A DNA stretch of 64,000 bases, from contig JBBSVM010000002.1 of assembly GCA_038046785.1 (NCBI GenBank), forward strand, positions 125,196 to 189,195, written 5' to 3'. The translations under genes and the position numbers were made by a program. This document shows positions 22,426 through 41,168 of this stretch, piece by piece. Every line of letters starts with the position of its first letter. Position 1 is the first letter of the stretch. The notes under the pieces are model-generated. The model saw only the letters and a program-made list of their open reading frames with translations. It searched no databases and was not told the DNA's origin. Origin of the DNA: Thermoplasmatota archaeon. GTDB taxonomy: Archaea > Thermoplasmatota > E2 > JACPAO01 > JAHFTW01.

Positions 22426-22887
22426 TCAAGCCTTGAGGGCCTTCTTCAAACGCTTTTTGTCGAGGCGGTACACCCAGGTGTTGGGGTTGCCTTTTGCCTT
22501 GACGCGCAGAGCGAGAGTGTTGTCGCGGTGGTGGCTGAACTCGAAGAGATCCTCGATGAATTTGCGCGACTGCTTTTCCAGCAATTTGGCGGCGTCCGAC
22601 TCGTAGGAGTCGTAGTGAAAGCGCATCTTCACGCCGGTGGCGACCACTTTGATGGTGCCGCGGCTGACCAGGCCGGTGATGGTGACCAGTTCGCCGGTGA
22701 GGACGCGGGTGTGGACGTCGCCGCCCTTGGCCGGGTTGGGGAACCAGTTGTTGCACTCCACGCAGAGCAGCTCGAACACCTTGTCGAGGTTCTCCACGTC
22801 CTCATGGTCCTCAAGGACGCGGATGAGCTGGCCGTCCTTCATCGCCATGAACATGTTGATGGCGTTGCAGTGGGGGCAGGCGAACAT
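22426..22887 (-). CDS. Hypothetical Zn-binding protein
   Basis: CPHC ... CVEC, basic C-terminus, strong codon bias. Confidence 0.7.
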   Translation of the reverse strand: MFACPHCNAINMFMAMKDGQLIRVLEDHEDVENLDKVFELLCVECNNWFPNPAKGGDVHTRVLTGELVTITGLVSRGTIKVVATGVKMRFHYDSYESDAAKLLEKQSRKFIEDLFEFSHHRDNTLALRVKAKGNPNTWVYRLDKKRLKKALKA

Positions 22888-23035: not shown

Positions 23036-24142
23036 TCAGGCGAGCGCGTGGACCGAGACGGTCTCGCGCTTCATGGTGCGGGCCGCTTTCTGCCAGCCAG
23101 CGATGCGGGTGGCGGAGATGGTGCCGGCGGTGAGGCGCACCTCGCGGGAATCGAGGTAGTCGTTGACCTGCTCGGCGAGACCGGTTGGGGTGCCACCCTT
23201 CAGGCCGTCGATGCCGTCGACGCCGCCCAGGGCGAGCGCCTCGGCGTACTGCGGGCCGATGCCGTTCACCATGATGAGCTCGGCCATGGTCTGCCACTCG
23301 TTGACGGTCTCCTCGGGGACATCGATGGCGGTGGCGAGCGCCTCAGTGGGGGCGCGGTACAGCTCGTCCGTGGTGTGGACGCCGACACCCTGCAGGCGAG
23401 CGGCAAGCTTGGCGCCAATCCCCTCAATGGCCTCGACGGGGTGGGAGTCGCCCGTGTACCCCTCGGCCTCGTCGGCGTGTTCGTGCGCGCCGTGGCCGTG
23501 GCCGGCATGGCCGTGGTCGTCGTGCGATGCGGCCGCCAGTTCATCGGCGTCGAGCTTGCGCAGGAACGGCAGGCCGGTCTTGCTGTTCTCGCCGACGGCG
23601 TAGCCGTGCGGAATCTGGTCCTGCACGACGCCTTCCTTCGGCTCGTTCTTCGCGAAGAAGTAGAGCGGGTTGCCCTTCGAGGATTGGCGGGCGTAGAGCG
23701 TGTAGCCGTTGTGCGTGAACGGGCCGCCCGGGCCGCAGGAGCCGCCTTCGCAAGAGCAGTCGCCCTCGCAGCAGCAGGAGCCGTCCGAGCAGGAGGCGTC
23801 GCAGGTACAGTCGCCCTCGCAGCAGCAGTCAGAGCAGGAGTCGTCCGAGCAGCCGGAACCGCACGAGGCGTGGTCGCAGCATTCGCCCGTCTCGCAGCAC
23901 GTGGGCAGGCAGCAGGCGCAGCCGTCGTCGCCGAGGTCGCGTCCGTCGGGGAGTGCGGCGGGCGGGGTCGCGATGACCTGGTGGCGGATGGGGCCGAAGA
24001 TGCTGCGGCGCACCAGCAGGGTCGCAGTCGGCGTGTTGACGAGGACGCGGTTGTGGTGGACAACCTCGAAGCGCACGAGCGGGTTGCCGGGCGGCAGCGT
24101 CTCGTTCAGGTGTTCAAGGGCCCAGAAAGGAATGCGTGGCAT
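23036..24142 (-). CDS. Multidomain protein: Cys-rich segment, small conserved domain, His-rich linker, HhH/DUF4332-like domain
   Basis: 22 Cys at aa 75-136; IEGIG...AARL...GV.T..EL; WQTMAELIMVNGIGPQYAEAL. Confidence 0.8.
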   Translation of the reverse strand: MPRIPFWALEHLNETLPPGNPLVRFEVVHHNRVLVNTPTATLLVRRSIFGPIRHQVIATPPAALPDGRDLGDDGCACCLPTCCETGECCDHASCGSGCSDDSCSDCCCEGDCTCDASCSDGSCCCEGDCSCEGGSCGPGGPFTHNGYTLYARQSSKGNPLYFFAKNEPKEGVVQDQIPHGYAVGENSKTGLPFLRKLDADELAAASHDDHGHAGHGHGAHEHADEAEGYTGDSHPVEAIEGIGAKLAARLQGVGVHTTDELYRAPTEALATAIDVPEETVNEWQTMAELIMVNGIGPQYAEALALGGVDGIDGLKGGTPTGLAEQVNDYLDSREVRLTAGTISATRIAGWQKAARTMKRETVSVHALA

Positions 24143-29833: not shown

Positions 29834-30463
29834 ATGCCCAGCCGTCGCGACCATGACGTTCCCGCCGCCACCATCTCGGCCACCATTGGCGTCTTCCTGA
29901 TTCTGGTGAGCTTGCCGTTCGCGGTGCTGGCCTACCAGGACCTGGAATCGAACGCCAGCGAATTCCTCGTCTCCTGGAGCGAACGCAACGCGGTGACGGA
30001 CCCGACCAGCCCGGGCCAACCGGCCGCTTCGGTGCGCATCGCCGATGGCCTTCCCGCCGTTGTCCGGATCACCTCGACCGCGTGCGCGGACTCCCCCGGT
30101 CCCGGCCAGAACTCGGCCCAGCTCACGGTCAACCTCAAGCGCACGGTGAACGGCGTCACCACCGACCTCGGCAGCAAGCAGTACACGTGCGCCACCGCCT
30201 CGGGTGACCTCGTGAGCAACCGCACGCTCGCTCCCGACGTTGGCGCCATCACCGGCCAAGACATCGCCGACGCCGCGAGCAACCTCGCCGACCGCGTCGC
30301 CGCAGGTCTCGTCACCGCCGAATACACCGCCACCGTGGTCGCCACCCGCTCGGCCGCCCAGGTGCCCGGCATCCCGCTGCCCAACCTCCAGTCCACGCTC
30401 ACCGCCACCGTCCAGCTCAGCGTGACAACCTGGGCCCCCACCCTCGCGGAGGCGGCCGAATGA
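29834..30463 (+). CDS. Hypothetical membrane-anchored exported protein
   Basis: N-terminal TM helix, Thr/Ala-rich beta domain with 2 Cys; ATGA overlap with the permease. Confidence 0.7.
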   Translation: MPSRRDHDVPAATISATIGVFLILVSLPFAVLAYQDLESNASEFLVSWSERNAVTDPTSPGQPAASVRIADGLPAVVRITSTACADSPGPGQNSAQLTVNLKRTVNGVTTDLGSKQYTCATASGDLVSNRTLAPDVGAITGQDIADAASNLADRVAAGLVTAEYTATVVATRSAAQVPGIPLPNLQSTLTATVQLSVTTWAPTLAEAAE

Positions 30464-32100
30464 CCGTCCTGCGCCGCGGCTTCGCCCGCTTGGGCTACAA
30501 GAAGAACATCGACCGCCTCCTCGAGGAGTCGCGCAGCAAGTCCGGCCTTGCCAAGACGCTTGGCAGCAAGGACCTCATCGTTCTCGGTGTCGCTGGCATC
30601 ATCGGCGCCGGCATCTTCGTCCTCATCGGCCAAGGCATTGAGAAGGCGGGCGTTGGCGTCATCCCTGCCTTCGTCGTCGCCGCCGCCATCTGCGCCGTCG
30701 CCGGCTTCGCCTACGCCGAACTCGCCGCCGCCATTCCGGCTTCAGGTTCCGCCTACGCGTACATCTACACTGCCATCGGCGAGCTGCCGGGCTGGATGGT
30801 CGCCTGGGCGCTCATCCTCGAATACGCCGTCGGCGCCGTCGCGGTCGCCATCGGCTGGCGCAACAACCTGCTGGCACTCATCAACCAGTTCAAGGACACC
30901 GACCCCGTTACCGACATCTTCGCCAACGCGGACTCGCCGGCGCTCTACTGGTTCACGCACAGCCCGCTCGAATCGGTGACGCTCACCGACGGAACGGTCC
31001 TCAATGGCATCCTGAATCTGCCCAGCATCCTCATCGTCATCCTCTGCACGCTCTTGCTGGTGCGCGGCACGAAGGAGTCGGCGAAGTTCACCTTCGTCCT
31101 CGTCATCATCAAGGTCGCCATCCTGCTGCTCGCCATCGTGGGCGGCTTCCTCGCCTTCGACGCAGCCAACTTCGATGATCCCTTCCCGCACCCCATCCCG
31201 TCGGCTCCTGACCTGCCCGACACGCGCGAATTCTTCCCCGCCATCCAAGGCGTCTTCGCGGCGGCGGCCATCATGTTCTTCGCTTACATTGGCTTCGACT
31301 CCGTCTCGACGACGGCGGAGGAGACCCGCAACCCGAAGAAGGACCTGCCGCGCGGCATCCTGGGCAGCCTGTTCATCACGACCGCCCTCTACGTCCTCGC
31401 CGCCGCGGCGCTCACCAGCGCTGCGAACTGGCAAACATTCGTCGGCGACTCCGTGGCCGCCACCAACGCCAAGGGCGAACCGTTTGGCTTCGTCTTCGAG
31501 CAGAACGGCTTCCTCGAAATCGGCGGCTTCGGATACGGCGCTCTCCTGGTGCGCATCGGCGCCCTCATCGGCACCACCTCCGTGCTCCTCGTGCTCATTC
31601 TCGGCGGTGTTCGCGTCTTCTTCAACATGAGCCGCGACGGCCTGCTGCCCTCCTGGATGAGCAAGGTCTCGGCGCGCGGAGCTCCCGCCAAAACCACCCT
31701 GCTGTACGGCGGCTTCACCGTGCTGTTCGCCGGTCTGCTCACGCTTGGCTCGGCGGTGGACCTGGTGAACATCGGAACCCTGTTCGCGTTCTTCATGGTC
31801 ATCCTCGCTGTCTGGGTGTTCCGCATCCGCCGCCCCGACGTGGAGCGGCCGTTCCGCATGCCGCTCTGGCCGGTCTTCAAGGACTCCAAGGGACGCCCCT
31901 ACCTGCCTGTGCTGAGCATGCTTGGCATGCTCGGCGTCGCCGCGCTCATCTTCAGCCTGAACGCCTTCACGCTGCTTGCGTCCGTCGTCTGGGCCGGCCT
32001 GGGCTTCATCGTCTACGCTCTCTACGGCGTGCGCAACAGCAACGAGGCGCGCGAACGCTTCGCCCTGAAGCCCGCCGCGGATGTGGACGGCGACGAGTAG
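30460..32100 (+). CDS. APC-family amino acid permease (CAT-like)
   Basis: IIGAGIFV, YAELAA.IP.SGSAY, FFAYIGFD, EETRNPK.DLP.GI, RDGLLP. Confidence 0.93.
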   Translation: MTVLRRGFARLGYKKNIDRLLEESRSKSGLAKTLGSKDLIVLGVAGIIGAGIFVLIGQGIEKAGVGVIPAFVVAAAICAVAGFAYAELAAAIPASGSAYAYIYTAIGELPGWMVAWALILEYAVGAVAVAIGWRNNLLALINQFKDTDPVTDIFANADSPALYWFTHSPLESVTLTDGTVLNGILNLPSILIVILCTLLLVRGTKESAKFTFVLVIIKVAILLLAIVGGFLAFDAANFDDPFPHPIPSAPDLPDTREFFPAIQGVFAAAAIMFFAYIGFDSVSTTAEETRNPKKDLPRGILGSLFITTALYVLAAAALTSAANWQTFVGDSVAATNAKGEPFGFVFEQNGFLEIGGFGYGALLVRIGALIGTTSVLLVLILGGVRVFFNMSRDGLLPSWMSKVSARGAPAKTTLLYGGFTVLFAGLLTLGSAVDLVNIGTLFAFFMVILAVWVFRIRRPDVERPFRMPLWPVFKDSKGRPYLPVLSMLGMLGVAALIFSLNAFTLLASVVWAGLGFIVYALYGVRNSNEARERFALKPAADVDGDE

Positions 32101-40982: not shown

Positions 40983-41168
40983 TCACAGCTTGCGCAGGTA
41001 GGGGAGCCCGGTTCGCTTGTTCTCTGCCACTTTGTACCCTTCGGGCATCTCGACAGGGCTCCCTGATTTGGGGTTGCGCTGGCTGAAGAAGTAGACAATC
41101 TGTTTGTGGCCGCCCTTCAGCTCGACCTCGCGGGCGTGCAGGGTGTATCCGTTGTGCTCGAAGGCCAC
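40983..41168 (-). CDS. Small conserved hypothetical protein (61 aa)
   Basis: HNGYTL.AR...YFF...P.GY.V.EN..TGLP.LRK, homologous to an internal domain of 23036-24142. Confidence 0.8.
   Translation of the reverse strand: MAFEHNGYTLHAREVELKGGHKQIVYFFSQRNPKSGSPVEMPEGYKVAENKRTGLPYLRKL

Follow-up and report, generated by a model that had tools for sequence, protein, structure and literature searches.

Metallothioneins (MTs), which have been described in eukaryotes and in some bacteria, are operationally defined as small proteins (below approximately 10 kDa) that lack aromatic residues, contain about 15-35% cysteine (Cys) in CC, CxC and CxxC motifs, and hold metal in metal-thiolate clusters; the Cd-MTs of ciliates carry CCC motifs. 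Fungal Ace1/Cup2, Amt1 and Mac1 are transcription factors built on Cu(I)-thiolate clusters, whose metal load controls binding, and Hpn and the Hpn-like proteins of Helicobacter are small, His-dominated, His- and Cys-rich nickel storage proteins. According to a passage of a review on metal resistance in archaea, 'MTs are absent in archaea', and the beta and alpha domains of mammalian metallothionein bind three and four ions, respectively (PMC3600143); a passage of a second source reports Cys-rich low-complexity domains to be rare in archaea (bioRxiv 10.1101/2023.07.24.550260). No description of an archaeal metallothionein was found among the papers listed by the literature searches, as judged by titles and the openings of abstracts. 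Here we describe a Cys-rich tract encoded by a Thermoplasmatota archaeon on contig JBBSVM010000002.1 (assembly GCA_038046785.1), within a stretch of 64,000 nucleotides (positions 125,196 to 189,195; hereafter the window, whose own numbering is used throughout), which on balance is probably a metallothionein-like domain for metal-thiolate clusters, specific to its lineage and built into a protein that itself probably binds nucleic acid.

The gene and the tract were mapped as follows.

23036..24142, minus strand: whole gene, 368 aa, ATG start (open reading frame and translation, codon-position GC, homologues aligning from residue 1).
23735..23920, minus strand: Cys tract, residues 75-136, 22 Cys, net charge -13, internal tandem duplication (translation, alignment, DNA repeats, AlphaFold2).

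Upon translation, the 62 residues of the tract comprised 22 Cys (35%), 10 Ser, 8 Gly, 8 Asp, 5 Glu and 1 His, with no Phe, Trp or Tyr and no Lys or Arg; Asp and Glu together number 13, matching the net charge, and there is no Cys elsewhere in the 368-aa protein. A preliminary description of this DNA had reported an acidic segment of 22 Cys in 62 aa without aromatic residues, with CC, CCC and CxC clusters and an internal repeat, and all of these features were reproduced; the repeat (SCSD-CCCEGDC-TC / SCSDGSCCCEGDCSC) was evident also in the DNA, as degenerate tandem repeats with periods of 18 (5.5 copies) and 15 (5.3 copies). With 35% Cys and no Phe, Trp or Tyr, the composition is metallothionein-like, as had been proposed.

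The Cys richness of the tract stands well apart from its surroundings. In the six frames of the 64-kb window, the runner-up 62-aa stretch contained 11 Cys vs 22 in the tract, and over the full genome (1.70 Mb in 10 contigs) the runner-up 60-aa stretch, which belongs to an Arg-rich non-coding frame, contained 13 vs 21 in the tract. A chance origin is excluded, and the tract is the only one of its kind in the genome. The frame is a real coding frame, as judged from its codon-position GC signature (GC content at the three codon positions, GC1/GC2/GC3, of 0.67/0.51/0.90) and from homologues that align from residue 1; the same alignment places the tract inside the protein, settling a concern of the preliminary description that it might lie upstream of the true start. 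A 630-aa open reading frame (ORF) crossing the region on the plus strand was rejected as an antisense artefact of the kind common in GC-rich DNA. Three other studies (X2, X5 and X8) supplied DNA contigs that each cover part of the tract: that of X2 spans 23745-24065 and that of X5 spans 23536-23793, both with 0 differences, and that of X8 spans 23788-23945 with 3 differences, all synonymous. Because independent studies contain parts of the tract that are identical or differ only synonymously, it is not an assembly artefact. No signal peptide or transmembrane segment was found in the protein (maximum KD19 hydropathy, 0.91); lacking a hydrophobic segment, it is therefore taken to be cytoplasmic.

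In order to gain insight into the conservation of the tract, 5.8 billion protein clusters were searched for relatives with word seeding, and 16 matches were obtained. P0002, 88% identical to the window protein, has a tract lengthened by a 14-aa insertion. P0003-P0010, at approximately 34-41% identity (BLASTP), share the architecture of the window protein, with an extra Zn ribbon (FRCGGCG...CSICAAK) after its small N-terminal domain (N-domain); their tract is a 48-aa form with the consensus CACCADGCCxxGxCCDHxxCxxCCxxxGCCxxGCDxxxCCPxxxCxCC, of which P0004 has the second half only. Among the remaining matches, P0011 is a fragment, P0012-P0014 have only the C-terminal DUF4332 domain in common with the window protein, and P0015-P0017 share the N-domain, the Zn ribbon and a beta module, with no tract and a different C-terminus. 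Among 164 proteins compared, a density of at least 8 Cys per 50-aa stretch was reached only in P0001-P0010 and in P0022, a protein of a different architecture.

Conservation was counted over P0003, P0005-P0010 and three genome loci (10 sequences, 9 distinct); P0001, P0002, P0004 and P0022 were excluded because of their differing tract lengths. All 18 Cys columns of the 48-aa form were invariant, vs 10 of the 30 other columns, and this difference indicates that the tract cysteines are under selection. The His of the CCDH motif and several Asp and Gly residues were also invariant. In the alignment used, 17 of the 18 Cys columns of the consensus are retained by the window protein, which has five additional Cys in duplicated inserts. 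Conservation of the Cys in homologues, which the preliminary description had put forward as a check, was thus borne out, the tract being kept in P0002 and in relatives of approximately 38% identity, with every consensus Cys invariant. Growth by tandem duplication was apparent in three proteins: the tract is expanded in the window protein, P0002 has its 14-aa insertion, and in P0022 the tract is extended.

These observations bear on whether the tract has a function at all, as it might be a low-complexity expansion arising from TGC/GCA slippage in a GC-rich linker and simply tolerated there. The degenerate tandem repeats in the DNA, the different tract lengths of close relatives, the loss of the first half in P0004 and the restriction of a dispensable gene to one genus would all be accommodated by such an origin. 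Drift cannot explain, however, why 18 of 18 Cys columns but only 10 of 30 other columns are invariant across proteins that are approximately 38-47% identical overall; in addition, the 48-aa consensus is not a simple repeat, and its core recurs in the second architecture of P0022. We consider this explanation the least probable of those discussed here.

The structure of the window protein was predicted with AlphaFold2 from a 13-sequence alignment (mean predicted local distance difference test score, pLDDT, of 76.5). Residues 60-138, which include the tract, were modelled as disordered (pLDDT below 50) between flanks of 80-95, which is the behaviour to be expected of an apo thionein. The tract co-occurs with a His-rich stretch in the window protein, in P0002 and, within its different architecture, in P0022; the stretch is absent from P0003-P0010. 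We favour a metal-thiolate cluster domain because of the composition, the invariant Cys separated by variable spacers, the conserved CCDH motif, the predicted disorder without metal, the growth by duplication and the co-occurring His runs. According to this reading, the tract arose in, or was inserted into, a flexible linker of a cytoplasmic modular protein; in its apo state it would be disordered, and thiophilic ions such as Zn(II), Cd(II) or Cu(I) would fold its 18-22 thiolates around polynuclear clusters. If mammalian metallothionein, in which 20 Cys bind seven divalent ions, is taken as a guide, each tract might hold approximately 6-8 divalent ions, and the nearby His run could contribute sites for Ni, Co or Zn. 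The protein would thereby sequester or buffer metal while being tethered through its beta module and two pairs of helix-hairpin-helix (HhH) motifs, most likely to nucleic acid.

Several results weigh against this reading. As judged by sequence, the tract falls outside all known metallothionein families: searched either alone or as residues 1-231, it matched 0 Pfam families at E<=10, metallothioneins included, and neither the tract nor its profile matched any PDB chain at E<=10, so that the preliminary description finds backing in composition and not in family membership. PF02069 (the SmtA/BmtA type) gave 0 matches in the genome, whereas the positive control in Synechococcus was detected. The operational definition describes small free-standing proteins, and the tract is internal to a protein of 368 aa; it is also strongly acidic (-13) and devoid of Lys, unlike the classical Lys-containing metallothioneins. 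All Cys codons of the tract are TGC, which in a genome so rich in GC3 leaves codon usage uninformative. By Pfam, no metal transporter, metallochaperone or metal regulator is encoded in the window between 14000 and 34000 or in the loci of four related genomes (G008, G010, G012 and G014). The gene is dispensable, being present in 4 of the 13 species of the genus and missing from the close relative G006. The one small RNA contig set available (X17) has a 163-nt contig at 22591-22753, inside the downstream gene only, and on the tract gene just a 35-nt piece with 5 mismatches; this is counted here as well, though it decides neither way on transcription.

The same searches bear on the nature of the ligands. 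Several [4Fe-4S] or [2Fe-2S] clusters might be held by the tract on a DNA-binding protein, a possibility raised by the many Cys in a cytoplasmic archaeal protein, by the adjoining HhH domains and by one CCP motif in the 48-aa consensus; the EndoIII/MutY glycosylases provide an example of an Fe-S cluster loop beside an HhH. The ferredoxin-type spacing CxxCxxCxxxCP does not fit the tract, however, and neither Fer4 nor any other Fe-S family of Pfam was matched at E<=10. A Cys content of 35-38% with seven vicinal CC pairs is, moreover, typical of thioneins and not of Fe-S sites, to which a His run such as the one found alongside would also be foreign. Ligation of Fe-S clusters is accordingly rated as improbable.

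Alternatively, the thiols themselves might be what is used, the tract serving as a redox buffer, as a persulfide carrier or as a substrate whose Cys are modified, by radical S-adenosylmethionine (radical-SAM) or multinuclear non-heme iron-dependent oxidase (MNIO) enzymes, in the manner of a ribosomally synthesized and post-translationally modified peptide (RiPP). Some RiPP cores do have Cys together with repeats of Asp, Ser and Glu. The tract is internal to a folded host of 368 aa, which is not the form of a RiPP precursor, and no radical-SAM enzyme, MNIO or lanthionine synthetase was found by Pfam over the same part of the window and the same four related loci. A short, free-standing form was likewise not found: a consensus word search of proteins of 30-223 aa gave 1 candidate, and none at E<=0.01. 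We regard a role as thiol reservoir or substrate as highly improbable.

The distribution of the tract is narrow. A tract profile was applied to 197 genomes of the class and found 4 positives (G000, G008, G010 and G015), all in the genus of the window; this amounts to 4 of the 13 species that make up the genus, vs 0 of 184 genomes elsewhere in the class, the tract-negative genomes of the genus being 65-92% complete. A near-length word search with the consensus tract, covering proteins of up to 714 aa, returned 8 proteins from 11 candidates, all with the DUF4332 architecture and including one that was new, P0165. In all, about 12 protein clusters containing the tract are known. With an HMMER profile built from the N-terminal 195-290 residues, 594 proteins among 1.84 billion representatives were matched at E<=0.001, and 193 at E<=1e-10; most of the proteins matched contain the beta module only.

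Within the protein, the tract is an insert in the linker of a modular protein, composed in order of the N-domain, the tract, the beta module, a His-rich linker and a DUF4332 domain with two HhH pairs. The parts that surround the tract are as follows.

23966..24142, minus strand: N-domain, residues 1-59, one helix and a four-stranded sheet (alignment; AlphaFold2 pLDDT ~80).
23552..23725, minus strand: beta module, ~58 aa, residues 140-197, FTHNGYTLY..YFFAK..P.G..V..N..TGLPFLRK (AlphaFold2 pLDDT ~90; profile hits).
23477..23524, minus strand: His-rich linker HDDHGHAGHGHGAHEH, residues 207-222, 7 His in 16 (translation, AlphaFold2).
23075..23431, minus strand: DUF4332 with two HhH pairs, residues 238-356 (Pfam, AlphaFold2, fold matches).

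The preliminary description had noted the tract, a His-rich linker and the HhH/DUF4332 C-terminus, and had missed the N-domain, the unnamed beta module and the restriction to one genus. Its His-rich linker exists, but does not directly follow the tract, as the beta module of approximately 58 aa intervenes. The N-domain has the invariant residues P5, W7, A8, N36, T37, G50 and H54 in the alignment, and its fold matches are weak (cystatin/PepSY/VirB8-like alpha+beta domains; Z ~5.5 by VIA-align); the Zn ribbon that follows it in relatives is lacking from the window protein. AlphaFold2 modelled residues 140-207 as four strands and a short helix (pLDDT ~90), residues 209-221 of the His-rich linker as disordered (pLDDT below 50), and residues 230-363, which contain the DUF4332 domain, with a pLDDT above 90.

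Recognition of the C-terminus was unambiguous, as the preliminary description had anticipated. DUF4332 (PF14229) scored 49 bits against a cut-off of 23.2 over residues 240-356, covering profile positions 1-121 of 122, which makes the protein a true member of the family, and HHH_5 (PF14520) scored 37.9 bits against a cut-off of 27. By VIA-align, the C-terminal region matched AF1548 (Z 8.0), the N-domains of Rad51/RadA (7.1-7.7), Y-family polymerases (7.0-7.5) and the NusA AR (6.2-6.8); Z values of 6-8 are modest, and these model-based matches would back the HhH fold only, not a function. In searches of the whole protein against Pfam and NCBIfam, the HhH region alone was recognised, the NCBIfam matches being sub-threshold, and Foldseek with the full AlphaFold2 model found no match in the PDB at E<=0.001. 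The ESM Atlas gave no usable match to residues 1-200 or 70-140; the structural rows obtained with 70-140 paired coil with coil (TM score of 0.40 or less) and were disregarded. The tether is presumed to be nucleic-acid-binding because of the HhH fold, the basic character of the free-standing beta modules and the CCCH fingers that take the place of DUF4332 in paralogues.

The partners of the N-domain and Zn ribbon vary among proteins, and five architectures were distinguished. In P0022 (395 aa, 41 Cys overall), the N-domain and Zn ribbon precede an extended tract, after which come a His-rich linker and two CCCH fingers; beta module and DUF4332 are both missing. The fingers resemble, by eye, the zf-TRM13_CCCH repeats of P0016 and P0021, and Pfam assigned P0022 to no family. 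In P0015, P0016, P0021 and P0038, one or more beta modules are combined with CCCH fingers, which replace DUF4332 (zf-TRM13_CCCH in P0021: 30.6 bits against a cut-off of 20.9). P0024 has the architecture of the window protein, beta module and DUF4332 included, with a plain linker and no tract. Since P0024 has a plain linker and the tract is found in two different scaffolds, we conclude that the tract was inserted into the linker of a pre-existing scaffold. Finally, in P0041, P0043 and P0058 the N-domain and Zn ribbon are fused to HisKA-HATPase_c (confirmed by Pfam for P0041, and by eye for the other two); this position at the N-terminus of a histidine kinase suggests an input or sensor domain.

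These architectures lend themselves to a different interpretation of the tract, namely that it is a metal- or redox-sensing switch, in which cluster formation or thiol oxidation would fold the linker, alter the distance of the N-domain from the beta module and HhH domains and so gate nucleic-acid binding. Yeast Ace1 and Mac1, which are controlled by Cu(I)-thiolate clusters, set a precedent for such a switch. The tract is placed exactly between putative input and output domains, an input role is suggested by the kinase fusions, and the variable outputs of the paralogues (HhH, CCCH fingers, kinase) resemble the layouts of one-component signalling proteins. Known sensors, however, need a handful of ligands, far fewer than 18-22 Cys; HhH and DUF4332 are not known as domains of sequence-specific regulators, and no regulated target gene lies nearby. 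The metal-binding step would be common to storage and switching, and nothing separates the two. We consider a switch unlikely, though with some plausibility. In a broader version, the tract would be the first metallothionein-type domain of Archaea and, far from being a free sponge, would read metal or redox state within a new modular family. There the small N-domain, in most cases followed by a Zn ribbon, would be connected either to outputs that bind nucleic acid (the basic beta module, HhH pairs or CCCH fingers) or to a histidine kinase, and clusters in the linker would switch a chromatin- or RNA-associated protein according to metal load; this proposal seems to us clearly unlikely.

The beta module occurs in several places per genome in 38 of 38 genomes of the order, in many protein contexts. 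Free-standing module proteins of 61-66 aa are strongly basic (median net charge +9, n=11), some having Lys-rich tails, and the embedded copy of the window protein is nearly neutral (net +3). The module had no Pfam match, and for the model of residues 137-207 (pLDDT 89.2 by AlphaFold2) no fold match in the PDB was found by VIA-align (best Z 2.4) or Foldseek; judging from the model, the module may be an undescribed small fold. The window itself contains a free-standing 61-aa module ORF with a GTG start (VAFEHNGYTLH...GLPYLRKL; 40983-41168, minus strand), just downstream of the end of a radA-like gene. In two related genomes, amino-acid permeases carry the beta module as a cytoplasmic C-terminal tail (L010, G011:C32; L012, G017:C8); the permease of the window (30460-32100) is without it. 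Four further DUF4332 proteins are encoded in the genome (G000, L002-L005), with frames of 412, 583, 1425 and 436 aa and a different N-terminus in each; this lineage makes repeated use of DUF4332 as a C-terminal domain.

The tract gene is flanked by an enolase gene, which is divergently transcribed (24267/24294-25577, plus strand), and by the following downstream gene; FtsZ and S3Ae are further neighbours.

22426..22887, minus strand: downstream neighbour, 153 aa, CPHC...CVEC (Zn-ribbon-like), 148 bp past the stop codon (no Pfam match at E<=0.1).

In G008 and G010, too, the tract gene is followed immediately by the 153-aa gene. The latter was considered as a partner specific to the tract, and was ruled out by its presence in 30 of the 38 genomes of the order, where it usually lies just downstream of a gene containing the beta module. 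Gene order is common to the window, G008 and G010: S3Ae, then further along the 153-aa gene, one or more N-domain/module genes, enolase and FtsZ. S3Ae, enolase and FtsZ also surround N-domain genes in G012, and on the shorter contig of G014 an N-domain gene lies beside enolase; in both of these genomes, the syntenic position is occupied by tract-less N-domain paralogues. In G006 and G007, the 153-aa gene is preceded by a membrane-anchored module-CCCH gene; a search of G006 for N-domain genes detected none. Elsewhere in the genome, and unlinked to the tract gene, is a copper-handling cluster (G000:C6:140759-150220; L047-L051) in which ORFs of 1009, 766 and 130 aa together encode four HMA domains and a further ORF of 562 aa contains CopC.

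Together these data describe a conserved archaeal tract with 18 invariant Cys which lies inside a multi-domain protein and evolved independently of the known metallothionein families. If it does bind metal, it would represent a thionein invented convergently, and its 48-aa form with 18 Cys would be a new and compact sequence for binding metal. The locus also highlights three parts of Thermoplasmatota proteins that await characterisation: the N-domain, the beta module, which is without a known fold, and DUF4332. The weight of these points is tempered by the confinement of the tract to one uncultured groundwater genus and by metal binding being predicted from sequence.

How the protein stands in relation to known systems depends on the part considered. 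Its C-terminal 120 residues belong to the DUF4332 (PF14229)/COG3743 'flap-endonuclease-1-like' HhH proteins, a family with no tested function, for which a mention in the accessible parts of the literature was found only in the context of heliorhodopsin; the Cys tract is absent from the other DUF4332 proteins examined. With Hpn, the tract protein has in common His runs and vicinal Cys pairs in an acidic low-complexity setting, but it is dominated by Cys, its His run lies in a separate linker 70 residues away, and no search revealed any similarity between the two. Ace1/Cup2, Amt1 and Mac1 offer a closer parallel in design, in that a segment forming polynuclear thiolate clusters (predicted in the present case) is joined to a nucleic-acid-binding part; here, there is no homology, the Cys are far more numerous, the attached domain is HhH/DUF4332 and not a copper fist, and there is no known target. 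Compared with the metallothioneins (vertebrate MT, PF00131; bacterial SmtA/BmtA, PF02069), the tract differs as an internal 48-62-aa segment of multi-domain proteins of 368-445 aa, and in being acidic, free of Lys, archaeal and without detectable sequence kinship. It resembles them in consisting of approximately one-third Cys in CC, CxC and CCC motifs, in having no aromatic residues and few His, in its predicted disorder without metal and in its growth by internal duplication.

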